A DNA stretch of 64,000 nucleotides from Candidatus Poribacteria bacterium (GCA_964291315.2 OZ219753.1:1504001-1568000); one strand, 5' to 3'. Counted from the first letter of the stretch, positions 5,740 through 52,399 are shown. The notes: generated by a model from the letters alone, not told the origin. A program made the numbers and translations.

Positions 5740-5782
5740 GGGACTACCTCCTGCCTCTACTATCATATTAACTTATATGATG

Positions 5783-5811
5783 AAGTATATCACACAGAGA
5801 CCTAGATATCA
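5783..5811 (-). promoter_or_regulatory. sigma70-like promoter of the Uma2 gene
   Basis: TTGATA-17 nt-TATACT with extended TG; TCATAT-N6-ATATGA inverted repeat just downstream. Confidence 0.55.
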
Positions 5812-5877
5812 AACGGATTCTAAGCTGGGCCTTCGAGCGGTGTTTCTCTCGACTCGTGGTTTGTATAACAGGGGCCC

Positions 5878-11402: not shown

Positions 11403-11506
11403 ATGTTCACCTGTGTTTATAAAGTGATTACGTCGCTAACCCTGTTTTCAAACTCACGTTATAATAACTATAGAAAATAGTTTATTAGAACCGGTGGTAA
11501 ACGTTG

Positions 11507-11734
11507 TTAGCGTTCAAGTTTTATGTGGTGACAATCAAATTCAACGAGTCTAATCACGCCGGGTTCGTTGTCGTACACCACACCGATGGAAGCGATAGTT
11601 TCTCCGGATCCTAAGAGACTCTCGAATTCGGAGATGTCACGGATTTCGCCATGATTTCCATCCACTGTGATCCTGTCCCCAACTTTCCAGTCTTTCACCT
11701 GTTGAAAGGGGATGTAATTTGCTGTATGATCCAT
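11507..11734 (-). CDS. Small hypothetical protein (75 aa, SH3/KOW/Tudor-like beta pattern)
   Basis: GGAGG RBS just upstream; co-oriented between helicase and methylase; WKVGDRITVDG..GEI. Confidence 0.6.
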   Translation of the reverse strand: MDHTANYIPFQQVKDWKVGDRITVDGNHGEIRDISEFESLLGSGETIASIGVVYDNEPGVIRLVEFDCHHIKLER

Positions 11735-11767
11735 TCGTTGGTCCTCCGTGCACAGAAAGAGCCGGAA

Positions 11768-14700: not shown

Positions 14701-15121
14701 TTGCGATCAGGCCCGCCATAATTGTTTTACCTGCTCCTGGGTCATCCGCGATCAGGAAGCGAATCCGCGGTTGCTTGAGTACTTGCCATACGGCTTCAAT
14801 CTGGTGCGGCAACGGATCGACCTTAGAGATGCTAATCGCAAAGGTCGGGTTGTAGAGTGCAGCGTACTGATAACGTTTTGCTTCGAGGTGAAGAAACGCG
14901 CGCCGCGCATTGCCGATAAAATTTAGTTGTGATTGAACAATTTGCAGCGTCTCCGCCTCCGCCGGGGTGAGCTCTTGGTTGATTGGCTGTTTGGAATTGA
15001 TCAACGTTCCGACAATATGTATGTCCCCGTTGGATCTTGGTTGATAGGCGTGAACATGAACGGGCTCGGGCCACAAGGAAGAAGATTCAACGATTGAGTC
15101 GTAGGTAATATTTTGTCTCAT
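11768..15121 (-). CDS. SNF2-family helicase with C-terminal DUF3883 (PD-(D/E)XK) nuclease domain
   Basis: [49 protein letters not shown]; C-terminal GFDLRS..IEVK. Start is 15121 (ATGA overlap with copA stop) or 15133. Confidence 0.9.
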
Positions 15122-20157: not shown

Positions 20158-21642
20158 TTATAGGAATACAAGCGTCACAATCACAAAAAGCGGGACTAAA
20201 ATTCCGGTCGACCAGATCATATATCCGAAGAAACTCGGCATGCGGATGCCGCTCTGCTCTGCAATCGCTTTTACCATGAAATTTGGCGCATTGCCGATAT
20301 AGGTATTCGCGCCCATAAAAACAGCACCTACAGAAATTGCTGTTAGCAATCTAACGAACTCTAAATGCTCAGGGGCTGTCAGCTGTCCGGATAAGATTTC
20401 TGGTACCAGGGCTTCAGTGAGATACAGTTTCCCAAGTGCTGTGTTAAAGAACGTCAAATAGGTGGGGGCGTTGTCCAAGAAGCTCGACAAAACGCCGGTC
20501 ACCCAAAAGTAGTGTATCGGTTCTTTAATAGCTGCAATCAACCAACTTAAGACCCCCTCTTCGCCGGCTTTTAAGATCGCTAATGCTGGAATAATTGTGA
20601 TAAAAATACCAGCAAACACCTTTGCCACCTCTTCAATTGGTTCCCACGAAAATTCGTTTGCTTGGCGCAATTTACCGCTAAACGGGGTAAATTTGAGGGA
20701 CAAGAGTCCCATGCAGACGATCAACACATCGCGGGCAATATTTTGCCAATATACATGCACACCGAGGATGTTGACATCACCCAACTTCAGCGTTCCGCTC
20801 ATCAAAACCGCCGCCACGATACCGAGCAGGAAAATTAGGTTGAAGAGTCCGTCTACCCGAAGCGGTTCGCTAGTGCCATCATCCGGCACTACGCCGCCTT
20901 CCCGTTTAAACATGATCGTGTCTACCACAAAAAATAGCGCAATTAAAATGATGCTAATAAATAGCATGTGTGGGAAGAGAGCCGTTGTCGTCCAGAAGAA
21001 AGGTACGCCATGCAGGAATCCCAAAAATAGCGGGGGGTCGCCCAACGGTGTTAAAGAACCTCCGATGTTGCTAACTAAAAAAATGAAAAACACAATCAGG
21101 TGGACTTTGCTTTTTCTATACGCATTTGCTCGAATTAGTGGGCGGATGAGGAGCATAGAGGCCCCAGTCGTTCCAACCCACGAGGCGATAGCCGTACCGA
21201 TCAGCAATAGAAATGTGTTAACGATCGGAGTGCCGCGCAAGGTGCCACGTACAAGAATTCCGCCCGCAACTGTGAACAATCCCCACAACAGAATGATGAA
21301 CGGAATGTAGTCTATTAAGTAGATGTGCAGGATATCGTAGAAAGCATCCCCACGGAAAGCAATGAGATACGGGATCGCGAAAATTAGCGCCCATACCAAC
21401 GACATCTTGCCACCGTGATGAATAAGAAAGTGGGAATCTAACACAAGCGGTAAGATCGCAATTGAGAGTAAGATCCCGACAAAAGGAATAATGCTCCAGA
21501 GAGGCAATTTCGAACCGTCTACCCCTCCGTGGTGTGCCCCGTCACCGTGAGCATCATCTGCACCGAACGCCTCTATTGAAACCGATAGCGCGAGTCCGAC
21601 AATTATACAAAAAATAAAACAGTATGTGAGTTTAAGTTTCAC
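20158..21642 (-). CDS. Ion-transporter (IT) superfamily protein, putative Na+/H+ antiporter or citrate-transporter-like
   Basis: Multi-TM; GTTGASMLLIRP, SNIGGSLTPLGDPPL, LSSFLDNAPTY, YIGNAPNFMVK; GTG start directly after nuoM stop. Confidence 0.8.
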   Translation of the reverse strand: MKLKLTYCFIFCIIVGLALSVSIEAFGADDAHGDGAHHGGVDGSKLPLWSIIPFVGILLSIAILPLVLDSHFLIHHGGKMSLVWALIFAIPYLIAFRGDAFYDILHIYLIDYIPFIILLWGLFTVAGGILVRGTLRGTPIVNTFLLLIGTAIASWVGTTGASMLLIRPLIRANAYRKSKVHLIVFFIFLVSNIGGSLTPLGDPPLFLGFLHGVPFFWTTTALFPHMLFISIILIALFFVVDTIMFKREGGVVPDDGTSEPLRVDGLFNLIFLLGIVAAVLMSGTLKLGDVNILGVHVYWQNIARDVLIVCMGLLSLKFTPFSGKLRQANEFSWEPIEEVAKVFAGIFITIIPALAILKAGEEGVLSWLIAAIKEPIHYFWVTGVLSSFLDNAPTYLTFFNTALGKLYLTEALVPEILSGQLTAPEHLEFVRLLTAISVGAVFMGANTYIGNAPNFMVKAIAEQSGIRMPSFFGYMIWSTGILVPLFVIVTLVFL

Positions 21643-32124: not shown

Positions 32125-33429
32125 TTAGATAGGTCCTTTCGCCCTGATGCCCTGCTCCTCGAGAATGGTAATAAACTCGGATTGCGAACGTGTACTTTTT
32201 GTTGAGTTACATGCGTTGCAGAGGAGCTGCAGGTTTTCTGTTTTATCTGTTCCGCCTTTAGATTGTGGCATAATGTGGTCTATTGTCATATTGCGGAGCG
32301 GGAAAAAATAGTGGCATCCTGCACATTTCCCCTCTTGTTTTCCGTAGAGTTCATGTTTATAGGTGTGTGCTTTGGGTAGCTGCATTTGGGCAGCGGCATC
32401 TATTAAATCGGTACGTTGAGGAGGGCAGGTTCGGACGTTAATATCTTCCAGAGGGTTCCACAGGTTAGTCTGTTTATCGACTTCTTCTTGTAGTCTAATT
32501 TTAGTGATAATTTCTGCGGATGGGGAGATATCTATGCCGATCCACTGCCTGCCACGTTGTTCTGCCGCAACGCAAGTCGTTGCACATCCACAAAATGGAT
32601 CAAGAACAATACCGTTCTTGTTGCTAGAGGCTTCGATGATACGATGTAAAAGGGCGAGTGGTTTTTGGGTAGGCCACCCGGTGCGTTCATCATCTTTGCC
32701 CTGCATCGTTAATTCTTTTTCTGTCCATAGGTTGCCGATTGCAACACCTGGGTGGGTGTCCAAGTAGACCCTCTTTACAATACCTTGCCGGTATTTTCTA
32801 CCACGCGGAATTGCGTAACGCCGTCCTTTTTGATCTACATGTCTATATTCCGATGTGATGGTTTGTTCTGACAACGGGCGAAAAACAGGATTGAAATTAT
32901 ATGCCTTGTCCATAGTGTAAAAGAGCAATATATCAGTTTCGGTGGTGAATTTACGTTTAGCAGTGTTCTTGTGCCCACCGTATTTTCGCCACACAATTTC
33001 ATTGCGAAAGTTCTGTTTCCCGAACAAACTATCCATCACAAGTTTCAAATAATGGGAGGCGGTGGGATCGCAGTGTAAGTAAATGGAACCTGTGGATTTC
33101 AATATCCGTTTCATTTCAAACAGCCGCACTGCCATCGCCATGAGGTATATCTTCATAGATCTGTCGTAGACTGCTTCAGACGCTTGAACGATTTGATAGA
33201 GTGCTTCGTTGTCTTCTGCGATTTCGCCATGCCATTCATATTCGATGTCTTCGTCTGTCCAGATATCTTTGAAAGATGCACCTTCTGCGGGCGAACCAAT
33301 GGAGGCTTTGTATTGCTTTTTGGAGTTAAATGGTGGATCGAGGTATATCAAGTCAATGCAATCGGAGTTGATACCGCGTAGGATATCGAGATTATCGGCG
33401 ATGAAAAGGGTTCGGTTCTTGATGTTCAT
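32125..33429 (-). CDS. Beta-class (N6/N4) DNA methyltransferase fused to a C-terminal HNH endonuclease
   Basis: IYLDPPFNS, HCDPTASHYLK, PTQKP, LDPFCGCATT; C-terminal CAGC..DHIMP..GG..NLQLLC..CN; start 33429 or GTG 33453. Confidence 0.88.
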   Translation of the reverse strand: MNIKNRTLFIADNLDILRGINSDCIDLIYLDPPFNSKKQYKASIGSPAEGASFKDIWTDEDIEYEWHGEIAEDNEALYQIVQASEAVYDRSMKIYLMAMAVRLFEMKRILKSTGSIYLHCDPTASHYLKLVMDSLFGKQNFRNEIVWRKYGGHKNTAKRKFTTETDILLFYTMDKAYNFNPVFRPLSEQTITSEYRHVDQKGRRYAIPRGRKYRQGIVKRVYLDTHPGVAIGNLWTEKELTMQGKDDERTGWPTQKPLALLHRIIEASSNKNGIVLDPFCGCATTCVAAEQRGRQWIGIDISPSAEIITKIRLQEEVDKQTNLWNPLEDINVRTCPPQRTDLIDAAAQMQLPKAHTYKHELYGKQEGKCAGCHYFFPLRNMTIDHIMPQSKGGTDKTENLQLLCNACNSTKSTRSQSEFITILEEQGIRAKGPI

Positions 33430-33609
33430 TGGTCTATTTGGTTTGCTTCCCACCTTGTTCCATCTTTGACCTCGTTATTAAAACGGTGTTCACCTGAATA
33501 CGCAGCATAAACCCTATCTAAAATTTAGGTTACGAAATAGCACCGCGCAAATGAACCCTACAGTGGGGGCAGAAAGCCGAAAACCTAAAATTTCAGAGTG
33601 CTACGCCCG

Positions 33610-34806
33610 TTACCGATCTAATTCTCCTGCGATAATGTTCAGACTCCCTAAAACGGCCACGGTATCCGAGACCATTCCACCCTCTAACATGTGGGGTAGG
33701 GCTTGGAAGTGCAAGAAACTCGGCGGACGGATCCGGATACGATAACCGGTTCCGCTTCCATCACTGACAATGTAAAATCCTAGTTCTCCGTTTGGGGATT
33801 CCGTGGCGCAATAGTGATCACCTTTTGGCACTTCCACTCCGTGCCCATCCATAATCACTTTAAAGTGATGGATTAACCCCTCAATATGCCCATAAGCGTC
33901 CGGTTTGTTCGGAAGCATAATTTTGTTATTTTCCAAGTTGACGGGGCCATCAGGCATATTATCAAGCACCTGTTTAATGATACCGCAGCTCTGAATCATC
34001 TCCTCCATCCGAACGAGATAGCGATCGTAGGCATCGCCGTTGGTTCCGACCGGCACATTGAATGTCACTTCATCATAACTCGAGTAGGGCTCAGCCTGCC
34101 GAAGATCGTGCGCGACACCGGTGGCGCGGAGACAGGGACCCGTCAAACCGTAGTCTATGGCATCCTCACTTGAGATGGAACCAACGTTTTTTGTGCGATC
34201 CATCCAGATCCGGTTCCGGGTGAGGAGCGTGTGGGTTTCCTTCAACGCTTTCGGGAAGTTAGTGATGAATTGCCGAACATCTTCCTCGCAGCCTTGATAG
34301 AGGTCGCGGAGGACACCGCCCACACGCGTATAACTGGTTGTCAACCGGGCACCTGTTGTCTTCTCAAAAATGCTGTACAATTTTTCACGTTCACGGAAAC
34401 TATAAAGGAATACTGAAAATGCCCCTAAGTCAAGTGCTGCAGTCCCCAGCCACAGCAGATGGTCTGCCACTCTTGAAAGCTCTGCCATTAATATACGGAT
34501 ATATTGGCACCTTTTCGGTACCTCGATGCCGAGCAGCTGCTCAACTGCAAGCACGTAGCCGAAGTTGTTTGACAACGGTGACAGATAGTTCATCCTGTCT
34601 GTCACAACAATGTATTGGTTGTAATCTAGGTGTTCACCGAGTTTCTCAAACCCTGTGTGAAGGTAGCCCGCGTGCGGCGTTGCCTTCAAAATGGATTCAC
34701 CGTCGAGCTCTAACACGATGCGAAGGGTGCCGTGCGTTGCAGGATGCTGCGGACCGAAGTTGAGAACCATCTTTTCGCCTGCGGCGTGTTCCAGTCCACT
34801 TTGCAT
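33610..34806 (-). CDS. nuoD: NADH-quinone oxidoreductase subunit D
   Basis: NFGPQHPATHGTLR, GYLHTGFEK, ESPNGELG, GELDR. Confidence 0.95.
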   Translation of the reverse strand: MQSGLEHAAGEKMVLNFGPQHPATHGTLRIVLELDGESILKATPHAGYLHTGFEKLGEHLDYNQYIVVTDRMNYLSPLSNNFGYVLAVEQLLGIEVPKRCQYIRILMAELSRVADHLLWLGTAALDLGAFSVFLYSFREREKLYSIFEKTTGARLTTSYTRVGGVLRDLYQGCEEDVRQFITNFPKALKETHTLLTRNRIWMDRTKNVGSISSEDAIDYGLTGPCLRATGVAHDLRQAEPYSSYDEVTFNVPVGTNGDAYDRYLVRMEEMIQSCGIIKQVLDNMPDGPVNLENNKIMLPNKPDAYGHIEGLIHHFKVIMDGHGVEVPKGDHYCATESPNGELGFYIVSDGSGTGYRIRIRPPSFLHFQALPHMLEGGMVSDTVAVLGSLNIIAGELDR

Positions 34807-36504: not shown

Positions 36505-39500
36505 ATGCAAAAATTTAGTCTCAAATCCACCCACAAGTCGATCCGCGACTATTATGCCACGCTGCAGGCATACAACCAGCACGACATCAGACATGAAGGC
36601 GCGGTGAGCTCTTCCTTCGAGGCACTCCTGCACGCCTGCGCGAAGCAGATGAAAGCGACGCTCATCCCGCAATATCAGATGCACGCCCCCAACGGAAACC
36701 GCATCGTTATTGACGGCGCAATCTTGGATGAATATAGCCTGCCGCTCGCCTACTGGGAGGCAAAAGATATTGATGACGATCTCACGAAGGCTGTTGAAGA
36801 AAAACGCGCGGCGGGGTATCCGCTAGACAACATCGTGTTCCAGAACCCACAGCGTGCGATTGTCTATCAGAACGGACGGGTCGCCTTAGACAGCGATAGC
36901 CGCAAGGCTGCAGGACTGATCGCCGCTCTTGAATGTCTGTTCGCTTATCTTCCGCCGGCATTGGAAAATTGGCAGTCGGCTGTAAAAGACTTCAAAGAAC
37001 ATGTGCCGGCCCTGGCAAGCGAGTTGAAAGAGCTCATTGAGCAGCGACACGCGGTGGATACGGCATTCCAAACGGCGTTCGCTAACTTCTATGAGACCTG
37101 CCGCACGACGATCAACCCCGAGCTCTCACAGGAGGCGGTTGAGGAGATGCTGATCCAACACATCCTCACCGAACGGATCTTCCGAACGGTTTTCAACCGC
37201 TCCGACTTTACGAGCCGGAACATTATCGCTGTTGAGATAGAGAATGTGAGTAGTGCGCTGATGCGGCAGGCGATGAGTCGAGATGTGTTTCTGGCGCCCT
37301 TAGATCGTTTCTATATCGCTATTGAACAGGCAGCACTATTCTGCAAAGACTTCTCACAGAAGCAGAGCTTCCTCAACAGCTTCTATGAGAAGTTTTTTCA
37401 AGGGTTCTCGGAGGATGTAGCGGACACACACGGCATTGTCTATACACCGCAGCCGATCGTGAATTTCATGGTCAACAGCGTGCAACATCTATTAGAGACC
37501 GAGTTTGATCGTTCGCTGTCGGACACGGGCGTGCATATCATAGACCCGTTTGTCGGCACGGGCAACTTCATCGTCCGACTGATGCAGGACATCCAAGGCA
37601 CGGCACTCGAGGCGAAATACCGCGAGGAGCTGCACTGTAACGAAGTGATGCTGTTGCCCTACTACATTGCTAGCCTGAACATCGAGCAGGAATACTTCCG
37701 TCGGACTGGTGCGTATCTGCCGTTTGAGGGGATCGTGCTGGCGGATACATTTGAGCTGCTTGAACAAGAGCAGGGACAGCTCTTCACGCGTGAAAACACG
37801 GAGCGGGTGCAGGAGCAGAAGGCGGCGGACATGTTCGTGGTGATCGGCAATCCCCCCTACAACGCCGGGCAGGTCAATGAGAACGACAACAACAAGAACC
37901 GGAAGTATCCACTTATGAACGCGCGGGTTGCGGAGACGTATGTGAAAGACTCCACAGCCACGTTGCGGAATAAACTCTACGATCCGTATGTGAAGGCGAT
38001 CCGCTGGGCATCGGATAGAATTGGAGAGGAAGGCGTTGTGGCTCTGATAACAAATAACAGTTTTCTCGACGGGATTGGGTTTGACGGTATGCGAAATCAC
38101 CTTGCGAAAGATTTCCATGCAATCTATGCTCTCGACTTAGGCGGAAATGCCCGGAAGGGATTAAAGGTCTCTCATGCGAATGTGTTCGGCATTCGGGTAG
38201 GGGTGAGTATCAACCTATTCGTGAAAAACAGAGAGCGTTCATCAGGGCAACCGTGCATCTATTACTATCGCACGGATGAGATGTGGAATAGAGAGCAGAA
38301 GTTCGAGTTCCTGAATAAATGCCGGCATGTGGGCGGGGTTGCGTGGCAGCCGGTTGCACCCGACGCGCGCCACACATGGCTCACGACAGGGCTCCGTCCC
38401 GAATTTGAGACCTTTCTTCCGATGGGCACCAAGGTAGCAAAGGCAAAAAGAGGGGCTGCAACAGAAGTACTTTTCAAAACCTATAGCAACGGCGTGAAGA
38501 CGAATCGTGATGCATGGACTTACAATTTTAACCGAAACGCACTCGTTGAAAATATAAGTCGGATGATTGAGACTTACAACGCAGAAGTGGCGCGCTGGAC
38601 ACAACGGAGAAATAGAGAGGTGCCCGTTGATAATTTTGTGGTATATGACGATACAAAAATCAAGTGGAGTCGGGATTTAAAAGCGAAATTGAAACGAGGA
38701 ACAGTTGCCAAATATGCGGATCACAAGGTGAGGACCTCCCTCTATCGCCCTTTTACGAAATCCAACCTCTACTTCGACCGAACTATGAACGATGTCGTAT
38801 CCCTATTTCCATCTATCTTCCCTACCCTAGAGACTGAATCAGAAAATCGGGTCATTTGTGTCAACGTGACGCTAGAAAAACCCTTTACTTGTTTGATGAC
38901 TGCTTGTATTCCTGATTTTGTAGTAACGGGCGGGTTTGGATCACCAACTCAAAGTTTCCCCTTCTACACCTATGACGAAGACGGCACAAACCGCCGCGAA
39001 AATATCACCGACTGGGCATTGACAGAATTCCGCTCTCACTACAAAGACGATAGCATTAGCAAGTGGGACATCTTCCACTATGCCTATGGGCTCCTGCACC
39101 ATCCCGACTACCGAGAGAAATATGAGGCGAACTTGAAGCGCGATCTGCCGCATATCCCCTTCGCCACAGACTTCTGGGCGTTCGCTACCGCAGGCGTAAA
39201 GCTCGCAGAGCTCCACGTCAATTACGAAACCGCACAGCAGTTCCCGTTGAAATACAGAGAAACGCCCGACACGCCGATAGACTGGCGCGTGGAGAAGATG
39301 AAGTTGTCTAAAGACAAAACACAGTTGAAATATAACGAGTTCTTGACGTTAGACGGCATCCCAGCGGAGGTGTTTGCATATCGGTTAGGCACTCGTTCAG
39401 CGTTGGAATGGGTGATAGATCAGTATCGTGTGAAGACGCACAAGCGGAGCCGGTTGGTTACCGATCCGAATTGTGCGGATGCGCCGCGGTATATTGTGGA

Positions 39501-39570
39501 TTTAGTGGCGCGGGTTATCACTGTCAGTCTAAAGACGGTGGAGATTGTTAAGAATTTGCCGGAACTTTAA
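36505..39570 (+). CDS. Type IIG/ISP-like restriction-modification fusion (nuclease + gamma-class N6 MTase + specificity domain, no helicase)
   Basis: N-terminal IDG..YWEAK, GIVYTP, IDPFVGTGNF, VIGNPPY, GVKTNRD, YRPF, C-terminal LG.RSALEWVIDQY. Confidence 0.85.
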   Translation: MQKFSLKSTHKSIRDYYATLQAYNQHDIRHEGAVSSSFEALLHACAKQMKATLIPQYQMHAPNGNRIVIDGAILDEYSLPLAYWEAKDIDDDLTKAVEEKRAAGYPLDNIVFQNPQRAIVYQNGRVALDSDSRKAAGLIAALECLFAYLPPALENWQSAVKDFKEHVPALASELKELIEQRHAVDTAFQTAFANFYETCRTTINPELSQEAVEEMLIQHILTERIFRTVFNRSDFTSRNIIAVEIENVSSALMRQAMSRDVFLAPLDRFYIAIEQAALFCKDFSQKQSFLNSFYEKFFQGFSEDVADTHGIVYTPQPIVNFMVNSVQHLLETEFDRSLSDTGVHIIDPFVGTGNFIVRLMQDIQGTALEAKYREELHCNEVMLLPYYIASLNIEQEYFRRTGAYLPFEGIVLADTFELLEQEQGQLFTRENTERVQEQKAADMFVVIGNPPYNAGQVNENDNNKNRKYPLMNARVAETYVKDSTATLRNKLYDPYVKAIRWASDRIGEEGVVALITNNSFLDGIGFDGMRNHLAKDFHAIYALDLGGNARKGLKVSHANVFGIRVGVSINLFVKNRERSSGQPCIYYYRTDEMWNREQKFEFLNKCRHVGGVAWQPVAPDARHTWLTTGLRPEFETFLPMGTKVAKAKRGAATEVLFKTYSNGVKTNRDAWTYNFNRNALVENISRMIETYNAEVARWTQRRNREVPVDNFVVYDDTKIKWSRDLKAKLKRGTVAKYADHKVRTSLYRPFTKSNLYFDRTMNDVVSLFPSIFPTLETESENRVICVNVTLEKPFTCLMTACIPDFVVTGGFGSPTQSFPFYTYDEDGTNRRENITDWALTEFRSHYKDDSISKWDIFHYAYGLLHHPDYREKYEANLKRDLPHIPFATDFWAFATAGVKLAELHVNYETAQQFPLKYRETPDTPIDWRVEKMKLSKDKTQLKYNEFLTLDGIPAEVFAYRLGTRSALEWVIDQYRVKTHKRSRLVTDPNCADAPRYIVDLVARVITVSLKTVEIVKNLPEL

Positions 39571-43623: not shown

Positions 43624-46476
43624 TCAGTATTCATCCAGCGGCGGGCAGGCACACATAAGGTTTCTGTCACCGTAAACTTCGTTAATTCGTGCTACAGGGG
43701 GCCAAAATTTGGCAGCGCGCACCCAGGCCTTCGGAAACGCTGCTTTTTCGCGCGAATAGGGGCTCCCCCATTCAGATTGTATAACCATTTCTGCTGTGTG
43801 CGGTGCATTTTTCAGAACATTATCTACTCGATCCGCAACGCCTGTTTCTATCTCTGCTATTTCTTCGCGTATTGAAATCAGGGCGTTACAAAAACGTTCC
43901 AATTCTGCTTTTGATTCGCTTTCTGTCGGTTCAATCATCATCGTACCCAGTACGGGCCAAGAGACAGTTGGCGCGTGGAATCCGTAGTCCATTAGGCGTT
44001 TTGCGACATCTGTTACGTCTATGTCAGCGCTCTTTTTGAAACCACGCAGATCAATGATACACTCGTGTGCGACTAAGCCCTGTTTTCCGGTATAAAGCAC
44101 CGGATAGTGCGGGGCAAGCTGCTTTGCGACATAGTTCGCGTTAAGGATCGCGACCTCTGTCGCCATTGTAAGTCCTTCCGCGCCCATCATAGAGATATAT
44201 GCCCAAGAGATAGGAAGGATACTAGGACTTCCCCACGGTGCCGCCGACACTGCCCCTATCCCTGCTTTACCGCCTATAGGCACAATCGAGTGGGTGGGTA
44301 AGAAGTCTGTCAGATGGGCTTTCACACCAATCGGTCCCATGCCCGGGCCACCGCCTCCGTGAGGTATACAGAAGGTCTTGTGGAGGTTCAGATGGCAAAC
44401 ATCTGCTCCGATATCTGCGGGGTATGCTATGCCAACAAGGGCGTTCAGATTTGCACCATCCATATAGACCTGGCCACCTGATTGGTGAACAATGTTGCAA
44501 ACCTCGCGAATCTTCTCTTCAAAAACGCCGTGCGTTGATGGATACGTAATCATTGCCGCGGCGAGGGCGTCTCGATGTATATCTGCTTTTGCCCGGAGAT
44601 CCTCAATATCTATATTCCCTTCCGTGTCACACGCGACGACCACGATCTGCATGCCCGCCATAACCGCACTCGCTGGGTTTGTGCCGTGAGCGGAAGTCGG
44701 TATTAAGCAGACATTGCGATGAGCTTCGTTCCGACTCTGATGGTATCTGCGGATCACTAACAGGCCCGCATATTCACCTTGTGAACCCGCGTTCGGTTGC
44801 AATGAGATACCGCTGTAACCTGTTATCTCGGCTAACCATGTCTCAAGTTGTGAAAACAGATGTTGGTAACCCTCCGTTTGTTCGAGCGGCGCGAACGGGT
44901 GAAGTTCCGCGAACTCAGGCCAGGTCACCGGAATCATCTCTGCGGTAGCGTTGAGTTTCATCGTACAAGAACCGAGCGGAATCATTCCATTCACAAGCGA
45001 AAGGTCCTTCGCTTGGAGTTTGTGAATATAACGAAGCATCTCGGTTTCAGAATGATAGGTGTTGAAAACAGGATGTGTCAGATACGGGCTTTTACGTTGT
45101 AAATCTAACGGAATCTGACTCGTAGACAAAGTTTCCAGCCGCGTCTTGACACCAAATATTTCAAGAAGTTCTTCAACGTCTGCTGCAGTGCTTGTTTCAT
45201 CTAAGGAGATACCGATGTGTGTTGTATCTATTGCCCGCAGGTTGATCCGTCTCGCATGCGCGGCAGTCATTATATCCGCTGTTGTTTCTGCCTGAACGCG
45301 AACGGAAAGGGTATCAAAAACCGGGGATTCGCCCGTAGCGTGGCCAATTTCTTCAAGTCTAGCACGTAGCCTACAGGTGAGCAAATGGATCCGCTCCGCA
45401 ATTTGCTGAAGCCCTCTCGGACCATGGTAGACCGCATACATCCCCGCCATGACAGCAAGGAGCACCTGCGCCGTGCAGATATTGCTCGTGGCTTTTTCAC
45501 GGCGGATATGCTGTTCCCGCGTTTGAAGGGCCAAACGGATCGCCGGTTGCCCCAATGTATCTTGAGAGACACCTGCAATTCGTCCGGGGATCTGCCGTTT
45601 AAGTGCATCCCGGGCGGAGAGAAATGCGGCGTGCGGTCCCCCATAACCGAGCGGCACCCCAAAGCGTTGTGCGCTGCCGATAGCGATGTCCGCTCCAAAC
45701 TCCCCAGGGGGACGCAACAATGTTAATGCTAACAGGTCCGTTGCCGTAATCAACAGGCCTCCAGCGGCGTGTACCTCTTCAGCGAATCCGCTATAATCGT
45801 GAATCGCGCCGTCAGTGGCAGGATATTGCACGATGCCCCCTAAAATTGGGGTAGTCAAGCTCGCTGTTTGAGGATCACCGATACATAACCGGATGCCCAG
45901 AGGTTCAGCACGAGTCTGTAAAACTGAGATGGTTTGTGGATGGCAGGTTTTTGAGACAAAAAAATCGCGACACGTTTTCTGCTTAGTGTGGGCGAGACAC
46001 ATCCCCATTGCTTCAGCAGCCGCAGTCGCCTCGTCTAACAGAGAAGCGTTTGCAATAGGTAAACCTGTTAAGTCAATAACCATTGTTTGAAAGTTGAGCA
46101 GCGCTTCCAAACGTCCTTGTGAAATCTCTGCTTGATACGGAGTGTATTGTGTATACCAGCCTGGGTTTTCCAAAATATTTCGTTGGATTACGGAGGGGAC
46201 GGTGCAGTTATAGTACCCCATGCCGATGAAGGATCGGAAAACATCGTTTTCAGCCGCCAGCGCTTTGAGCGCGGAAAGTGCCTCCGCTTCTGATAGAACG
46301 CTTGTATCGCTATTTAAAGCGAAATCTGATGCCAAACGAATATCGGGCGGCACAACATCATCGATAAAATCTGCCATCGAAGAATAATTGAGCGTTACCA
46401 ACATCTGTTCAATATCATCTGATCGGGGTCCGATGTGTCGAGATGCGAAGGGTGTGATGTTGTTTTTTTCAGACAT
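43624..46476 (-). CDS. gcvP: Glycine dehydrogenase (decarboxylating), single-chain P protein
   Basis: [43 protein letters not shown]; start MSEK at 46476. Confidence 0.97.
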
Positions 46477-46855
46477 CTTCCGCCTCAATATGTGCTTGAT
46501 ACCTCTCAGCATCAAGGAGTGCGTCAAGCTCCGCGGAGTCTATCATTTTGATTTTCAGCAGCCATCCGTCGGTGTAGGGCGATTCGTTCACCTGTTCTGG
46601 GGCATCAAGGAGTGATTCATTCACTGCGAGGACTTCACCGCTAACGGGCGCATAGAGGTCAAACGCTGCTTTAACAGATTCTATGACTCCGAACTCCGTT
46701 TTTTGTGTAAGGTCACTGCCGACTTCCGGCAACTCAACGTAGACGATATCTTGAATTTCCGATTGCGCGTAATCAGTGATACCGATAGTGACGATGTCAC
46801 CGTCCCTCTTTGCCCATTCATGGCTTTCCATATATTTTAGGTTTTCTGGAATCAT
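46469..46855 (-). CDS. gcvH: Glycine cleavage system H protein
   Basis: SHEW, GITDYAQ, lipoyl motif IESVKAA, VNESPY..GW. Confidence 0.95.
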
Positions 46856-46881
46856 GTGCTTTCTCCATGTAAATATAATGT

Positions 46882-47949
46882 CTACGAACGTAGTAGAGGC
46901 CTCTCTGTGTCCGTACAATGCCGCTCCATTTTATGAACTTCTTGGATGTTTGTCGGGTATCCGTGTATTTGGTAGTCTTTTGAGGGTTGCAGTCCGTGCC
47001 TGTCAGCGAGTCTGCGGCGTGTTGTGTCAAGTGAGAGCAGTGTAAGATCAATCCCTATCCAGGGCCGGTTGAGGGTGTGTGCTGCATCTATTGTGGTGCC
47101 ACAACCGACAAAAGGGTCCATAACGAGATCGCCTTCATTGCTCGAGGCTTGTATCATGCGTTCGTAAAGGATAATAGGTTTCTGTGTCGCATAGCCGAGA
47201 CGTTCTTTAGAGGTTCTGCCGACCATATCCACTTCCCAAACATCGCGCATAGATGCCATCGTGTACCAACGGCCTTCTTTATCTTGAAATTCGTTAATAC
47301 CTTCAAAACGATAAGGCTTGAAGTTCCGATTGTATGACTTTTCCTTCTGAATATTAAAGGTATGTCTGTTCCTAAAATTTCGGGTGTAGAAGAGAATTAC
47401 ATCGTGCTTACGCGCAAACCAATTTTTGCTGATGCCCCCTGAGCGGTATGACCATACAATCTCATTCCGAAAGTGCTCATTTTTCTTTCGATTGTTCTGA
47501 TCCCAAATTGCGTCCATTATGCCTTTAAGGTAGTGGCTTGCGGTGGGATCGCAGTGTAGGTAAATACTGCCGGTCTCTTTGAGGAGCCGGTGCATCTCTG
47601 CGAGGCGCGGCCCCATAAACGCGAGGTATGCTCGCATCGCGCCCTTGTTGCCCGATACTGCGTTTTGTAGCACAAGATCATAGCCTTTGAGGCAGACATC
47701 CAGTGCTTTGTAGGTGTCGCTGGTGCGTGCCATTCTTTCAATGTCAGTGCGTGTGTCTTGTGCCGGGGTGTCCCAGGTCCAAGTGTCTGTAAATGCTTTA
47801 GCTTGTGCCTTGGAATCAGTAAGGAATGCATTGTAATCACGCCCGCTGTTGAAGGGCGGATCGGTACATATTAGGTCGACGTGCTGGTCGTCCATTTCTT
47901 GCATGACTTCAAGGTTGTCACCGAAGTATAGACTGTTCGGTAGGATCAT
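46882..47949 (-). CDS. Beta-class DNA methyltransferase, copy 2 (no nuclease domain)
   Basis: TDPPFNS, HCDPTASHYLK, ATQKP, MDPFVGCGTT; 355 aa from ATG 47949. Confidence 0.88.
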   Translation of the reverse strand: MILPNSLYFGDNLEVMQEMDDQHVDLICTDPPFNSGRDYNAFLTDSKAQAKAFTDTWTWDTPAQDTRTDIERMARTSDTYKALDVCLKGYDLVLQNAVSGNKGAMRAYLAFMGPRLAEMHRLLKETGSIYLHCDPTASHYLKGIMDAIWDQNNRKKNEHFRNEIVWSYRSGGISKNWFARKHDVILFYTRNFRNRHTFNIQKEKSYNRNFKPYRFEGINEFQDKEGRWYTMASMRDVWEVDMVGRTSKERLGYATQKPIILYERMIQASSNEGDLVMDPFVGCGTTIDAAHTLNRPWIGIDLTLLSLDTTRRRLADRHGLQPSKDYQIHGYPTNIQEVHKMERHCTDTERPLLRS

Positions 47950-49482
47950 TTTTCTCTCTATTAGTATGATATTTACGAGCGCATTAGAGTCATCTGTGTG
48001 TCCGTAAAGTGCCGTTCTACCTTTCGCATCGGGGCAATCCACGCGGCAGGTAAACGGATAATGTCCTTCAAGGAGCTCGGATTTTCAAAATAGGTGTCGT
48101 CTATTTGCCAGAATTGCAGGCGCGGAAATGTTTCATTGTTGTGATAAAACGTTCCCATATCAGCTGCAACCTGACGCATGCCGGCACTAACAGGTGTAAT
48201 TGTGATAAATACACCGATTGCATCGTTTTTGTTCATCACATGACAGAAGGCGCGGACTTGTGAGATCGTCGGTTTCCCGCTTTTGACTTCAGCAAGGATA
48301 CGTGTATGGGTCGTCTGCCCTTCTTCTGGGTCCCAGAGCGTGATATGTCCGACGTTTGCCTCACCATCTTTCCCACCGTCTCCCACAGATTTCGTCGGTT
48401 GAAGTCCGAGGCGTGTGACTGCCCAGTTAGAGAAGTCGTGATATTTCTTTTCATCTCGGACGAGTTTATGAACTTCTTGGATGTTTGTCGGGTATCCGTG
48501 TATTTGGTAGTCTTTTGAGGGTTGCAGTCCGTGCCTGTCAGCGAGTCTGCGGCGCATAGGGTCAAGTGATAGAAGTGTGAGATCGATCCCTATCCAGGGC
48601 CGGTTGAGGGTGTGCGCTGCATCTATTGTGGTGCCGCACCCGGCGAAGGGATCCATGACGAGATCGCCTTCGTTGCTTGAGGCTTGTATCATGCGTTCGT
48701 AAAGTGCCCGCGGCTTTTGCGTCGGATAGTCGAGCCGTTCTTTTGCCATGGAATTCAGTGAGGGGATGTCTTTCCACCAATCGTTAGGGATCATTCCTTC
48801 GTCAGGGTAGTAATATCTTTTTTTCCCCGCATCAACACGGATCCGACACTTCCTGCCTTGATTATCTACCTGCCGATAATGGCTTGCCAGATATTCTTCA
48901 CTAATAGGCATTTTGTAACTTCCCCAAAATGCTTTGTCAGTTTTCGTATAAAGCAAAAGAGTGTCGTGTTTTTTGGAAAAGAAACGTTTAGGGCGACCAC
49001 TGTTAGAGTATCCCCAAGCAATCTCATTTCTATAATTCTCTATATCAAAAATTGCGTCCATTACGCCTTTAAGGTAGTGGCTTGCGGTGGGATCGCAGTG
49101 TAGGTAAATACTGCCGGTCTCTTTGAGGAGCCGGTGCATCTCTGCGAGGCGCGGCCCCATAAACGCGAGGTATGCTCGCATCGCGCCTTTGTTGCCCGAT
49201 ACTGCGTTTTGTAACACAAGGTCGTAACCCTTGAGGCAGACATCCAATGCTTTGTAGGTGTCGCTGGTGCGCGCCATTCTTTCAATGTCAGTGCGCGTGT
49301 CTTGTGCCGGGGTGTCCCAGGTCCAAGTGTCTGTAAATGCTTTAGCTTGTGCCTTGGAATCAGTAAGGAATGCATTGTAATCACGCCCGCTGTTGAAGGG
49401 CGGATCGGTACATATTAGGTCGACGTGCTGGTCGTCCATTTCTTGCATGACTTCAAGGTTATCACCGAAGTATAGACTGTTC
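46930..49482. repeat. Two pairs of direct repeats from the MTase duplication
   Basis: 47505-47938 vs 49049-49482 (434 bp, about 11 mismatches by eye); 46930-47208 vs 48465-48743 (highly similar). Confidence 0.92.
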
Positions 49483-49484
49483 AT
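47973..49484 (-). CDS. Beta-class DNA methyltransferase fused to an Mrr-like restriction endonuclease, copy 1
   Basis: TDPPFNS, PTQKP, MDPFAGCGTT; C-terminal GDGGKDG..AEVKSG..GVFIT. Confidence 0.88.
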   Translation of the reverse strand: MNSLYFGDNLEVMQEMDDQHVDLICTDPPFNSGRDYNAFLTDSKAQAKAFTDTWTWDTPAQDTRTDIERMARTSDTYKALDVCLKGYDLVLQNAVSGNKGAMRAYLAFMGPRLAEMHRLLKETGSIYLHCDPTASHYLKGVMDAIFDIENYRNEIAWGYSNSGRPKRFFSKKHDTLLLYTKTDKAFWGSYKMPISEEYLASHYRQVDNQGRKCRIRVDAGKKRYYYPDEGMIPNDWWKDIPSLNSMAKERLDYPTQKPRALYERMIQASSNEGDLVMDPFAGCGTTIDAAHTLNRPWIGIDLTLLSLDPMRRRLADRHGLQPSKDYQIHGYPTNIQEVHKLVRDEKKYHDFSNWAVTRLGLQPTKSVGDGGKDGEANVGHITLWDPEEGQTTHTRILAEVKSGKPTISQVRAFCHVMNKNDAIGVFITITPVSAGMRQVAADMGTFYHNNETFPRLQFWQIDDTYFENPSSLKDIIRLPAAWIAPMRKVERHFTDTQMTLMRS

Positions 49485-49520
49485 CTGCTAATCTTTATTA
49501 TACAGTTTGACTTTCAGGGT

Positions 49521-50597
49521 TTAGATAAAAGGGACGTTTACAATTTTAGCCGGATGTATCCTATCCCGAATTTCTATGTCAATTTCTCCATCGTCAGGCA
49601 TTAACTGCGCTGTTACGGCCGCAAGGCCGATATTGCGTTTCAGACTTGGGGAGGGTGCGCCGCTTGTCACGTTCCCTATCTGTTTACCGTCCCGGTAGAC
49701 GGCATAACCGGTGCGCGCGACAGCACGGTCAAGCATCTGAAATCCTATCAACTGCCTTACAGGGCCCTTTCGTCTCTGTGTGACGAGTGCGTTCTTGCCG
49801 ATAAATTTGCGGTTCTTGAACTTGACAAATTTACCTAACCCGACTTCAAATGGATTTGTATCGGTATTCATATCTACGTCGTAAAGGCGGAGACCAGCTT
49901 CAAGACGCAACGTATCGCGCGCACCGAGTCCTACAGGCTGACCTTCTGCTTCTATTACAGCAGGATAGAGCACTTCCCATAAATCTTTTGCTCTCCTTGC
50001 GTTAACGTACAACTCAAAACCGTTTTCGCCGGTATACCCGGTTCGTGAAATTAGCGTAGGTATCTCGTCAACCTCGGCTACAACAAAACCGAAAAATGGA
50101 ATTTCAGAAACATCGTGTTCAGTAACAAAAGCGTTTAGAATATTTATTGATTTTGGACCTTGCAATGCAATAAGGGCAGTGTTATCGCTTTGGTCTGCTA
50201 TTTCTGCAGCCATACTGTTTTGGGTTTCTATCCATGCCATATCTTTTTCGATATTAGCAGCGTTGACAACCAACATATAGTGGTTATCCGCGTATCGGTA
50301 AATAAGAAGGTCATCAATTATGCCGCCTGTTTTGTTGCAAAAAAGAGTGTACAGCACACGTCCATCCGTTAAACGCCCGGCATCGTTTGTGCTGAGTTTT
50401 TGTACCAATTCATTCGCCCCATGCCCGCGAATATCAATTTCTCCCATGTGTGACAGATCGAACAACCCAGCAGCCGATCGTACGGCAAGATGTTCTTTAA
50501 CGATGCTGCTGTATTGGAGCGGCATTTCCCACCCACCGAATTCGGTGAATTTGGCGCTGAGATACTTATGGACTCGGTAAAGCGGTGTTTTTTTCAT
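49521..50597 (-). CDS. gcvT: Glycine cleavage system aminomethyltransferase T
   Basis: KTPL, FGGWEMP, FDLSHMG, SRTGYTGE.GFE, GLGARDTLRLEAG. Confidence 0.97.
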   Translation of the reverse strand: MKKTPLYRVHKYLSAKFTEFGGWEMPLQYSSIVKEHLAVRSAAGLFDLSHMGEIDIRGHGANELVQKLSTNDAGRLTDGRVLYTLFCNKTGGIIDDLLIYRYADNHYMLVVNAANIEKDMAWIETQNSMAAEIADQSDNTALIALQGPKSINILNAFVTEHDVSEIPFFGFVVAEVDEIPTLISRTGYTGENGFELYVNARRAKDLWEVLYPAVIEAEGQPVGLGARDTLRLEAGLRLYDVDMNTDTNPFEVGLGKFVKFKNRKFIGKNALVTQRRKGPVRQLIGFQMLDRAVARTGYAVYRDGKQIGNVTSGAPSPSLKRNIGLAAVTAQLMPDDGEIDIEIRDRIHPAKIVNVPFI

Positions 50598-50631
50598 GTT
50601 TTGCCGTTAAAGAGGCGTGGGCTCAACGTTT

Positions 50632-50784
50632 TTAAAGCCTATAGATGCATGCAAGATTCCCACCAAAAATCAGTGCTTCTGCGTCATCGCCAAGCTCCAA
50701 TCGCTTAAGGGCGTTAATAACCTGAATTGGACGGTATTCGGGCAAATTAGAGCCTAGGATATCTACTTCAAAATTGTCTTTCAT
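50632..50784 (-). pseudogene. 50-aa ORF resembling the C-terminal end of an amidohydrolase_2 protein
   Basis: GAGG RBS; ILGSNLP..LELGDDAEALIFGGNLACIYRL resembles the lfGSDyP..ifggNAarly terminus. Confidence 0.45.
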
Positions 50785-50806
50785 GAGCAAGTTTCCTCTT
50801 AGGCGG

Positions 50807-51868
50807 TTACGGGGTCGGACTTTCGTTGATAAGAATCGCTCCATTTGATCCGACTTCAAAAACCGCCTTTCCGTTTGTTACAGAATCTCGATAATCTGTA
50901 TAGGCAGATTCCGCATTGGCGGAGTCTGCAAAACGGATAATGAAAACAATCGGGGTATCCAACCATGTTTCTGATTTCATATTTTCCCAATAGCGCGATG
51001 AGATACCGATCGCTGTATCGGTCAATTGTGGAATAGTAGTCGGTAGGCTGCTGTAGATTTGACGCAACGTCCAATTTGAGCGGAATAGTTTGACACTTCC
51101 ATTCACTTTATTGCTGCTCGGTAATAGCGCGAATATCCTCGGGTCCCGAGGCGGATCTTCAATTTGTGCAGCAACAATTTTAGCGAGGGCAACCATACCT
51201 TCCCGGATGCTAGTCGCTATTTCGTAACCCTCGATCTGAACGAAATACTTCCCTTTTGAAAAGCGGAGATAGTTGCCTGAAAGGAGAGCCTTACACCCCA
51301 CCCATTCAATTTTCATTTGTGGATAGGTGTAGAAATTATAAATCCCAAATGCGTTTTCTGGCGAGCCCATGTCGAATATCTCAAGTAAAATCAGCGGCTT
51401 TGAACCAAAGCGGGGCGTTTCATATTCCACCTCCGCTTGTCGTTGAAAGCCGTAGGCATAGTAAAGCTTCGGAGACGAGCTTCTGTCACGATAGAGCGTT
51501 TCACCCTCGTAAGTTGAGGGCAAGCGTGACTGGACCCAGCCCCCTGACTCTCGATCGCTCGGTAAAAGATGGGTTGGTGAAATATCAGTTCGTCCGGTGT
51601 TTTTTGCGGTTGATGGTTCTAACGCAGCTGACGCGTTTTTGATATTTGATCTTATCTCAAGTATCGCCTTTTGCGCTTTCTCCTCCGTGGTACTGTGCCA
51701 TACCCCGTAGATATATCGTGCTTCCTGCTGAACGGCTGTCCAGTTTCCCCGCTCCTCACTACATGAGAGCAGCGTCAAACTAAAAAAGAGGGGCATCCCA
51801 AGCAAGAAATGGAGAGATTTAGAAAAAAAGTCTGTTCCCTTACCTTTCGTTCGTTCGATCGTTTCCAT
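50807..51868 (-). CDS. Exported/lipoprotein, DUF6599-like
   Basis: LLSC lipobox-like; TYEGETLY, YYAYGF, EIFDMGSPENAFGIY, KGKYFVQI. Confidence 0.6.
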   Translation of the reverse strand: METIERTKGKGTDFFSKSLHFLLGMPLFFSLTLLSCSEERGNWTAVQQEARYIYGVWHSTTEEKAQKAILEIRSNIKNASAALEPSTAKNTGRTDISPTHLLPSDRESGGWVQSRLPSTYEGETLYRDRSSSPKLYYAYGFQRQAEVEYETPRFGSKPLILLEIFDMGSPENAFGIYNFYTYPQMKIEWVGCKALLSGNYLRFSKGKYFVQIEGYEIATSIREGMVALAKIVAAQIEDPPRDPRIFALLPSSNKVNGSVKLFRSNWTLRQIYSSLPTTIPQLTDTAIGISSRYWENMKSETWLDTPIVFIIRFADSANAESAYTDYRDSVTNGKAVFEVGSNGAILINESPTP

Positions 51869-51880
51869 GCGTGCGTCCTA

Positions 51881-52399
51881 TTACCACTGCTCTGCTAGTT
51901 GATTGTAAAGGTCTTCCACGAGCTCATCTAAAATAAGGTTTTTGGCTTGTTCCGGGGTTTCCCTTGGTTCTGACCGGTTTGGTACGATATAGAAATCATG
52001 GACCTGGATATAGTTGTCGGTTTCGGCGATCGTATTATTACGTACGCGGTCTAAGAATTCATACTCGATCTGCAAACTCATACGCAACATTTCGACTTCC
52101 CCTTGTGGGCCGAAGCCCTGCTCTATTAAATTGTAGTCCTGTATCCGGATTGTAAATTCGGAATCGTTCCCGTCTCGCCATTTCCGGTTGAAACGTTGAG
52201 TTAGTTTCTCATGAATGATTTCATCATACGGACGCTGAGAGGTCGTATCGTAGGCAAAATCAGCGTCCAAGATTTCAACTGGCGAGATACGGATGGTTTT
52301 GATATGTTCCAAGTATTCAGATTTGGAAACGTAACCGCATCCAGCAATCAGTAGGTTCAAGCATATCGGTAGTACTAAGGTCAACAAGGTTCTACGCAT
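51881..52399 (-). CDS. Lipoprotein, LptE-like
   Basis: LIAGCGY lipobox; HIKTIRI; C-terminal helix ending in W. Confidence 0.55.
   Translation of the reverse strand: MRRTLLTLVLPICLNLLIAGCGYVSKSEYLEHIKTIRISPVEILDADFAYDTTSQRPYDEIIHEKLTQRFNRKWRDGNDSEFTIRIQDYNLIEQGFGPQGEVEMLRMSLQIEYEFLDRVRNNTIAETDNYIQVHDFYIVPNRSEPRETPEQAKNLILDELVEDLYNQLAEQW

Follow-up and report, generated by a model that had tools for sequence, protein, structure and literature searches.

The stretch analyzed here (the window), 64,000 nucleotides (nt) from the chromosome of a Candidatus Poribacteria bacterium that lives as a sponge symbiont (GCA_964291315.2 OZ219753.1:1504001-1568000), carries two adjacent DNA methyltransferase genes, MT1 and MT2, between gcvT and gcvH. 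All genes of interest lie on the minus strand. MT1 is a beta-class DNA methyltransferase with a C-terminal Mrr-like PD-(D/E)xK domain on the same chain; in MT2 that domain is missing. With a probability of roughly 0.6, we read MT2 as an old, lineage-specific tandem duplicate of MT1 that would have swapped its target recognition domain (TRD) and lost its nuclease, the scaffolds of the two genes having been homogenized by gene conversion. MT2 is most likely an orphan-methylase derivative. The near-identical scaffolds of the pair reflect the norm of the family together with local concerted evolution, not a purpose-built switch. The parts of the two genes are the following (aa, amino acids; dN, nonsynonymous divergence):

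47973..49484, minus strand: MT1, 503 aa, the full-length form of the family (PF01555, 8.8e-45, aa 21-302)
49050..49484, minus strand: MT1 5' scaffold block, aa 1-145, motifs IV-VIII (11 differences in 432 nt against 47506-47937)
48744..49049, minus strand: TRD1, the target recognition region of MT1, aa 146-247 (relatives P0002, L032 and P0004)
48465..48743, minus strand: MT1 3' scaffold block, aa 248-340, motifs X and I-III (31 differences in 279 nt against 46930-47208)
48021..48464, minus strand: Mrr-like domain of MT1, aa 341-488, missing in MT2 (tblastn segment map)
47976..48020, minus strand: C-terminal tail of MT1, 15 aa, kept in relatives (Q497 at least 98% conserved)
47938..47972, minus strand: MT1-MT2 spacer, MT2 start codon and next three codons, 35 nt, derived from the leader and start of gcvH
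46882..47949, minus strand: MT2, 355 aa, methyltransferase only (PF01555, 2.8e-40; Mrr segment absent by tblastn map)
47209..47505, minus strand: TRD2, the target recognition region of MT2 (relatives P0313, P0316, P0122 and P0123)
46885..46929, minus strand: MT2 tail, 15 aa, left over after the deletion and diverging (dN 0.24 against the MT1 tail)

The two genes share long blocks on either side of a divergent middle. In the 5' block (49048-49481 against 47504-47937), 422 of 434 nt are identical (97.2%), in agreement with the length and the figure of about 97% that an initial annotation of this DNA had given by eye; the codon changes between MT1 and MT2 are 10 synonymous and 2 nonsynonymous. 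The downstream shared block of about 280 bp that the same annotation had noticed was also recovered, with 248 of 280 nt identical between 48465-48744 and 46930-47209 (88.6%; 222 of 240, or 92.5%, in the inner part) and 18 synonymous and 8 nonsynonymous codon changes. The scaffolds are 95% identical overall and 98% identical in the 5' block. MT1 and MT2 are mutually closest in both blocks, at 97.5% and 88.9% DNA identity versus at most 83% for any of 35 related loci, and similarity on this scale, as judged from the alignments, is far beyond chance.

Divergence within the shared blocks is uneven. Synonymous divergence (dS) is 0.116 in the 5' block (dN 0.003) and 0.745 in the first 63 codons of the 3' block (dN 0.07), and the difference at synonymous sites between these two segments has a Fisher p of 5.7e-6. 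The last 90 nt of the 3' block are identical in both copies, a run that none of 20,000 permutations of the 31 differences reproduced. The tails are diverged (dS about 0.5, dN 0.24), and tail, spacer and start together give 69 matches in 109 alignment columns. Because synonymous divergence is patchy in this way, falling from 0.745 to 0.116 on one side of the TRD and to 90 identical nt elsewhere, the pattern points clearly to gene conversion: it appears to have homogenized the 5' block, together with the final 90 nt of the 3' block, after an older duplication.

The middle segments of about 300 nt, in contrast to their flanks, are 38-59% identical between MT1 and MT2 in 90-nt windows (about 45% over the TRD as a whole). 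With gaps counted, TRD1 and TRD2 are 18% identical, and over 33 aa near the NEIxW and KHD motifs, in the first third of the region, identity reaches 48%. These segments had been described as largely unrelated; the strong divergence stands, but the alignable 33 aa mark them as strongly diverged homologues. The closest relatives of TRD1 are P0002 (85%), L032 (83%) and P0004 (79%), and those of TRD2 among the matches listed are P0313 (81%), P0316 (80%), P0122 (75%) and P0123 (74%). The scaffolds of P0122-P0125 are just 74-77% identical to the window's 5' block, and the 3' block of MT2 shares 51-54 of 63 residues with MT1-clade proteins versus 47 of 63 with P0122, the closest full-length TRD2 relative. 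These comparisons present MT2 as an MT1-clade scaffold fitted with the TRD of a distant, widespread type.

That type was found in 234 proteins at E<=1e-10, and the named taxa among the matches listed range from Chloroflexota to Clostridiales. Its partners vary: the 119 listed non-self matches include 17 with an HNH domain, 12 with Mrr_cat/PF22722, 1 with T5orf172 and 89 with PF01555 only, 25 of these 89 being no longer than 345 aa. An origin of MT2 as a translocated P0122-type paralogue was considered and rejected, since its 3' block is of the MT1 clade.

The nuclease was lost cleanly. MT2 is without exactly MT1 codons 341-488 (444 nt), and the tails beyond them are homologous, so that the reported in-frame loss of 148 codons (48021-48464) stands, as does the report that it takes out the PD-(D/E)xK / Mrr-type domain in frame; the shared tail counts 15 residues, not 16. 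The MT2 tail has C at the position of F493 and E at that of Q497, a residue at least 98% conserved in the family. It appears to be decaying, which fits the tail as a structural part of the deleted domain. Nuclease loss recurs independently in the family: P0150 (371 aa) carries a different in-frame nuclease deletion, with the tail also kept.

Internally deleted or truncated family copies were seen in other Poribacteria genomes as well (L030, L032, L033, L034, L035 and L018). L032 has the 5' block and a TRD1-type region joined straight to the Mrr-like domain, with the 3' block absent, and L030 consists of 19 N-terminal residues and the Mrr-like domain only.

Both proteins match PF01555, MT1 at 153.8 bits and MT2 at 139.1 bits (cutoff 26.7), and they follow the permuted order of the beta class: motif IV, D27-P-P-F30, stands ahead of the TRD and motif I, F280-x-G282-x-G284, behind it, both motifs are invariant in a set of 36 sequences, and the variable block sits between the two. 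NCBIfam and PADLOC both point to a Type II-like beta-class adenine-methylase scaffold, and the DPPF motif presumably hints at N6-adenine as the methylated base. The closest solved structures in the PDB are M.RsrI, M.MboIIA, CcrM and EcoP15I Mod; a profile search of the PDB with MT1 returned relatives only for the methylase domain. Of the 95 invariant columns of a 40-sequence alignment, DPPF and FxGxG among them, MT2 retains every one, and it is probably an active methylase. The Discussion of Furuta and Kobayashi (2012, PMC3467074) places the TRD of beta-class enzymes between motifs IV-VIII and X-III, which is where the variable block of MT1 and MT2 lies, as the initial annotation had proposed.

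For the C-terminal domain of MT1, the case for a nuclease comes from conservation and from remote relatives. At least 98% of 133 members have D369, G370, G371, D373, G374 and A398-E399-V400-K401, and in the 36-sequence set D369, G371, D373, G374, E399, V400 and K401 do not vary at all; on this alignment evidence the D...ExK signature of the MT1 family is complete. Many relatives of MT1 carry precomputed matches to PF04471 (Mrr_cat) and PF22722; MT1 itself stays below the PF04471 cutoff and Pfam gives PF22722 alone. When the 168-aa domain was searched against 1.84 billion representatives, 213 matches were obtained at E<=0.001. Among 31 of these remote relatives that were scanned, 24 have PF04471 and 23 have PF01555; the domain is therefore nearly always found with this methylase. 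The best-probability Foldseek matches, which range from 0.98 to 0.60 and rest on a mediocre model, are the PD-(D/E)xK nucleases Can2 (0.98) and EndoMS. We regard nuclease activity of the domain in the Poribacteria clade as likely.

Full-length homologues of MT1 (about 35% identity, at least 80% coverage) also occur in 7 plasmid and 28 phage records, mostly of Streptomyces phages, and the phage and plasmid homologues match PF04471 at 6e-7 and 1e-5. One of them, gp49 of the temperate actinophage OzzyJ of Streptomyces (L036, locus 2471-4105), has 544 aa and the methylase plus Mrr-like layout, and adjoins a serine integrase.

The origin of the second copy can be traced at its start. The 35 nt that follow the MT1 stop and reach codon 4 of MT2 find their best local match in L001 (15.5 kb, both strands searched) at the start of gcvH (9128-9155; the L001 gcvH ATG is at 9146), with a score of 17 versus a mean of 12.4 and a maximum of 15 for 200 shuffles. 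Because the best L001 match of the spacer is the gcvH start, MT2 is taken to be translated from a copy of the gcvH leader and start. The N-terminus of MT2 reads M-I-L-P and continues with family sequence from N-S-L-Y. Together these features argue firmly that the MT2 leader and start codon are a copy of those of gcvH and that the repeat unit ended in the first gcvH codons. Only the spacer and start codon trace to gcvH. A derivation of the tail from the gcvH upstream region was ruled out, as the tail is the conserved C-terminus of the family in many loci.

In the family at large, more than 6,600 homologues of MT1 were found at E<=0.001. Most of them are 490-520 aa long; those of about 573 aa form a second size class with a different TRD, and existing names among the homologues are Candidatus Poribacteria methyltransferases. 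MT1 represents the usual full-length form of this very large family. When species-representative genomes, one per species, were scanned for exact peptide words from MT1, at least 35 loci were found in 28 Poribacteria assemblies, the counts being a lower bound. The family is multi-copy per genome, with two loci in 7 of the 28 assemblies (again a lower bound). No tandem pair was present at any of the 35 related loci; one of them (L009) has an unrelated PF01555 gene 3 kb off.

Variation in this family is concentrated in the TRD. With 133 full-length members aligned, the commonest residue at a position has a mean frequency of 0.88 in the 5' and 3' blocks alike, of 0.77 in the C-terminal domain and of 0.50 in the TRD. 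Over the 8,778 pairs that these proteins form, scaffold and TRD identity correlate at 0.19: TRD identity is below 35% in 1138 of the 1397 pairs with scaffolds at least 85% identical, and scaffold identity is below 70% in 17 of the 378 pairs with TRDs at least 70% identical. Single linkage at 60% yields 36 TRD clusters. The same is seen when genes at one chromosomal site are compared, the TRD being replaced in three of four such comparisons: MT1 versus L001 at the gcv locus (TRD 0.16, scaffold 0.88-0.93), L002 versus L005 at the suf locus (TRD 0.23, scaffold 0.93-0.98) and L007 versus L010 at the EF-G locus (TRD 0.28); L002 and L003 have their TRD in common (0.99). From these alignments, a near-identical scaffold with an unrelated TRD is the norm of the whole family.

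L001 is the sole locus among the 35 that shares the gcvT-gcvH position, and it holds a single full-length gene with a third TRD. Comparison of the gcvT-gcvH interval, as the initial annotation had suggested, thus shows a different TRD in L001 and no second copy there.

On the reading we prefer, a unit running from MT codon 2 through the first gcvH codons would have been duplicated in the gcvT-gcvH spacer. The duplicate may then have recombined within its conserved flanks and so acquired a foreign TRD (TRD movement), which would have made MT2 a functional orphan methyltransferase of another specificity. Its nuclease could have been lost by ordinary decay or under selection, since a nuclease of new specificity would cut the unmethylated chromosome. 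MT1 would have remained a one-chain restriction-modification enzyme in which one TRD serves methylase and nuclease. Gene conversion would later have homogenized the 5' block and the end of the 3' block.

Several observations weigh against this reading. With respect to origin, insertion of a second copy together with a duplication of about 35 nt of gcvH leader is possible and hard to separate from tandem duplication, and the gcvH leader of the window itself is too diverged to give a score. The scan held only species-representative genomes, and closer relatives might share the tandem. Conversion footprints flanking the TRD are also expected from a working TRD-exchange system. With respect to the nuclease, MT1 matches PF22722 ('inactive REase') at 16.7 bits, or 19.1 for the domain alone (cutoff 27); the predicted local distance difference test (pLDDT) score is 68.9 for the domain model and 60.9 for the full-length MT1 model; and Foldseek against the PDB, run with the mediocre domain model, had no match at E<=0.001. 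A serine stands at the position of E399 in phage OzzyJ gp49 and in a Megaera plasmid protein, both of which keep the aspartates and K401, and the occurrence in phages fits an accessory DNA-binding role as well as restriction. An old duplication with later conversion tracts is the simplest reading of the locus.

The alternative that fares best concerns function only and overlaps with the origin just described. It holds that there is no restriction: the C-terminal domain would be a non-catalytic DNA-binding module with a restriction-endonuclease fold, and MT1 and MT2 would be two solitary methyltransferases with an epigenetic or anti-restriction use. We consider this possible, at clearly less than even odds. 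The 'inactive REase' family PF22722 as the sole Pfam match of the MT1 domain, the match of OzzyJ gp49 to that family (1.3e-15), the serine at E399 in phage and plasmid homologues, the 28 phage records with at least 80% coverage and the lack of a fold match at E<=0.001 all speak for it. It is harder to square with the presence of D369, D373 and E399-x-K401 in at least 98% of the 133 Poribacteria-clade members and with the 24 of 31 remote relatives that reach PF04471. The same scaffold and TRD types are moreover fused to HNH and T5orf172 domains elsewhere, and once in the window, which suggests an interchangeable cutting module, and both the extreme turnover of TRDs, typical of defense genes, and the frequency of internally deleted copies argue in the same direction. 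If the C-terminal domain is inactive, the locus is just two solitary methylases, of modest interest.

A second alternative takes up the cassette exchange of the initial annotation, in which recombination between the repeats loads another TRD onto the nuclease-bearing gene. MT2 would then be a pre-protected TRD reservoir: conversion from MT2 to MT1, or unequal sister exchange, would put TRD2 on the nuclease gene, and sites already methylated by MT2 would make the switch non-lethal. Recombination between the copies has indeed taken place, as shown by the conversion tracts that border the TRD on either side (dS 0.116 in the 5' block and the 90 identical nt ending the 3' block, versus a background dS of 0.5-0.75). 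Homology arms of 434 and 280 nt flank the TRD, TRD2-type regions occur with Mrr-type (12) and HNH (17) domains among the 119 listed matches, and MT2 has all invariant methyltransferase residues. A dedicated switch, however, finds little at the locus. The repeats are direct, with no inverted repeats between MT1 and MT2 (a single inverted pair in 45500-51000 lies outside them), and no recombinase gene was found among the window open reading frames (ORFs) scanned with Pfam. A reciprocal crossover would yield nuclease-less products only, leaving MT2 alone if in the 5' block and TRD1 without a nuclease if in the 3' block; because the repeats are direct, only non-reciprocal conversion or unequal sister exchange could give TRD2 plus nuclease. 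Rather than a silent cassette, MT2 is an entire gene that has a start of its own; its tail is decaying as fits a relic, and it stores a single alternative TRD, unlike known multi-cassette systems. None of the 35 related loci is a tandem, L001 at the same position is single-copy, the one sequence examined contains no hybrid allele, and scaffold identity with TRD disparity is a family-wide property. We therefore hold it improbable that MT1 and MT2 form a working pre-protected reservoir and that beta-class scaffolds with exchangeable TRDs and C-terminal modules (Mrr-like, HNH, T5orf172) in housekeeping operons constitute an uncharacterized modular one-chain class. If true, such a reservoir would let a one-chain enzyme change its restriction specificity safely, which would be of high interest.

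Two further proposals assign the second gene a partner role, and both are very unlikely. In the first, which had been offered as the companion-pair option, MT1 would mark one strand of an asymmetric site and MT2 the other. The TRDs do differ, as the strands of such a site would need, and the two neighboring genes run in the same direction, no minus-strand terminator-like site separating them. Against a pair, 35 of 35 related loci are without an adjacent same-family companion (the PF01555 gene near L009 being unrelated), TRD1-type (L032) and TRD2-type (P0122-P0125) genes stand separately as full-length fusions, TRD2-type enzymes occur as nuclease fusions of their own, L001 at the same locus is a single gene with a third TRD, and TRD2 is widespread in many phyla and architectures; the companion pair thus finds no support. 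In the second proposal, MT2 would pair with MT1 to give a complex with one nuclease and two TRDs, in which restriction is dampened or specificity is composite. Beta-class methyltransferases act as dimers, and scaffolds that are 95% identical (98% in the 5' block), held alike by concerted evolution and encoded by genes that are probably co-transcribed, would suit a heterodimer. The arrangement is seen in this genome alone among the 35 loci, however, and duplication with conversion explains the scaffold similarity more simply. An assembly artefact, in which two strain alleles of one locus were concatenated, is the least credible account: near-identical 434-nt blocks can mislead metagenome assembly, but at the junction the tail, spacer and gcvH start recur not as a shared identical sequence but as a diverged copy (about 65-70% identical) that has indels of its own, substitutions peculiar to MT2 mark its tail and 3' block, the two ORFs are intact and keep the register expected of them, and the contig is 3.26 Mb long.

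The pair interrupts a gcvT-gcvH-gcvP cluster, whose genes are placed as follows:

49521..50597, minus strand: gcvT (aminomethyltransferase; PF01571 1.6e-91, PF08669 2.4e-21)
46469..46855, minus strand: gcvH (PF01597 1.3e-41), starting 26 nt past the MT2 stop
43624..46527, minus strand: gcvP, the final gene of the interrupted cluster (tblastn / ORF)

The gcvT stop is 36 nt from the MT1 start, and the gcvH ATG was picked by alignment with gcvH of L001. A longer MT2 with a GTG start at 48042 was set aside in favor of the ATG start, as it overlaps MT1 and misfits the family N-terminus. A promoter and terminator scan of the window gave nothing above chance, and Rfam gave 0 matches on the window, glycine riboswitch included. 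Because the scan found no minus-strand terminator-like site from gcvT to gcvP, co-transcription of MT1 and MT2 with the gcv genes is plausible. Upstream of gcvT, at 50807-52399 (minus strand), are a DUF6599 protein (353 aa) and a 172-aa protein without a Pfam match.

Family genes recur in or beside housekeeping clusters. Over 27 loci (L001-L029), these include gcvT|gcvH (L001), sufBD / sufS-nifU (L002, L003, L005 and L029), EF-G with an FGE-sulfatase (L007 and L010) and PhyH clusters (L013, L014 and L021-L025). Neither mobility genes nor conserved flanking DNA were found around the family genes at these 27 loci, and a mobile cassette with conserved ends was ruled out, as homology between loci begins at the ATG and stops at the stop codon. 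Nor did the 106 flanking ORFs of the 27 loci include a conserved partner gene. Some neighbors are recurrent without being universal, namely a Uma2-like ORF (5 loci), an ORF of about 170 aa (5), an HSDR_N-like ORF (4) and DUF6575 (4), none of them at the window locus. The ORFs of about 170 aa form a family with no Pfam match (L004:6453-7004, L012:6489-7004, L017:1414-1899, L020:6492-7004 and L027:6492-7004). Their stop overlaps the methylase start codon in 5 loci, and for some family members they may serve as a partner through translational coupling. The Uma2-like putative endonuclease ORFs stand beside the methylase at L001:6077-6889, L002:6093-6953, L005:8543-9349, L012:9897-10826 and L029:6094-6954. 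Only the L012 copy reaches PF05685 (4.7e-8), and the L001 copy lies between gcvT and the methylase gene.

The window contains further genes of related kinds. A third beta-class methyltransferase (32125-33453, minus strand, 442 aa) combines PF01555 (1.3e-43) with a C-terminal HNH domain (PF01844, 2.1e-13) and lies within the NADH dehydrogenase operon, flanked by nuoD (33610-34806) and a glyoxalase gene / nuoE. Its identity to MT1 is 41% for the 5' block and 56% for the 3' block, and it is the same scaffold idea with a different cutting module, again in a housekeeping operon. At 36505-39570 (plus strand), between nuoA and pdxH and on the opposite strand to them, is a 1021-aa protein with a Type ISP C-terminal specificity domain (1.1e-102), an ISP coupler and N6_Mtase; Pfam gave no match for an N-terminal nuclease-helicase part. 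A probable defense cluster occupies 4984-15133 (minus strand), with a Uma2-family endonuclease (4984-5766), a DUF499 protein (5878-8703), a 900-aa protein without a Pfam match (8700-11402) and an SNF2/ResIII helicase with NOV_C (11768-15133). A CitMHS_2 transporter gene (2.7e-179; 20158-21642, minus strand) sits between two Proton_antipo_M (nuoM/N-type) nuo genes as a foreign-looking insert.

The MT1 family is large and apparently uncharacterized, consisting of beta-class methylase / Mrr-like fusions found in Poribacteria, phages and plasmids with a tendency toward housekeeping operons. In the openly searchable literature, REBASE and subscription journals being outside the search, no experiments on a beta-class methylase carrying a C-terminal Mrr-type domain were found. 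Should MT1 prove active as a one-chain restriction enzyme, the family would be compact and easily retargeted, and if MT1 cuts, MT1 and MT2 would be a natural test of a safe specificity change in a fused enzyme. The duplication reading already gives the locus its own value, as most steps of restriction-modification evolution are on display in one place: duplication, TRD import, nuclease loss and gene conversion.

The locus can be set beside several known systems. Decaying restriction-modification systems leave orphan methyltransferases, in that restriction goes first and the methylase stays. MT2 resembles these in having lost the cutting domain in frame with the methylase kept, as recurs in P0150; unlike them, it adjoins its intact parent and has apparently been kept similar to it by gene conversion. 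Type I hsdS shufflons are invertible. MT1 and MT2 share with such shufflons and with gene-conversion systems the conserved flanks around a variable cassette and the conversion footprints, but they are without silent cassettes, have one alternative copy, and have no invertase or inverted repeats. Among the conversion systems, pilin and outer-membrane protein families are described as varying by gene conversion from stored to expressed copies (PMC3467074).

The closest precedent for the TRD exchange is that of the Type III mod genes of Helicobacter pylori, for which Furuta and Kobayashi (2012, PMC3467074) describe movement of TRDs by recombination at conserved motif-coding flanks. As there, the enzymes of the MT1 family are beta-class, the TRD lies between the motif IV-VIII and X-III blocks, and TRD and non-TRD phylogenies disagree; TRD movement through conserved flanks is thus found in the MT1 family too. 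In contrast to a Type III system, the nuclease is fused to the methylase: beside MT1 and MT2 there is no res helicase-nuclease gene, gcvT and gcvH standing in its place, and none was found in the 106 flanking ORFs of the 27 loci. PADLOC ranks Type II models above Type III. The flanks of MT1 and MT2 are also long and near-identical (434 and 280 nt), because the partners are tandem paralogues.

MT1 also resembles the single-chain Type IIG/IIC enzymes MmeI and BpuSI (PMC3185434, PMC2731913). In these enzymes, nuclease, methylase and TRD are on one polypeptide, as they are in MT1, and one TRD sets both activities; allelic TRD diversity, with TRD substitution between alleles, is documented for single-chain Type IIG genes (PMC2853133). 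In the Type IIG enzymes described, the nuclease is N-terminal, the methylase gamma-class and the TRD C-terminal, whereas the beta-class MT1 has its TRD inside the methylase and its Mrr-like domain at the C-terminus, and its cleavage is putative. The origin of the second copy has a possible parallel in the insertion of restriction-modification genes with long target duplication, reported by Furuta et al. (2010, PMC2853133): a gcvH leader/start copy of about 35 nt stands on both sides of MT2, in a housekeeping cluster with no mobility gene. Unlike in that process, the repeat flanking MT2 may equally be the end of a whole-gene tandem duplication, and both repeats are old and diverged. Set against these systems, the MT1/MT2 locus is a clear and somewhat unusual case of largely expected, known processes, namely TRD movement, orphan formation and concerted evolution.

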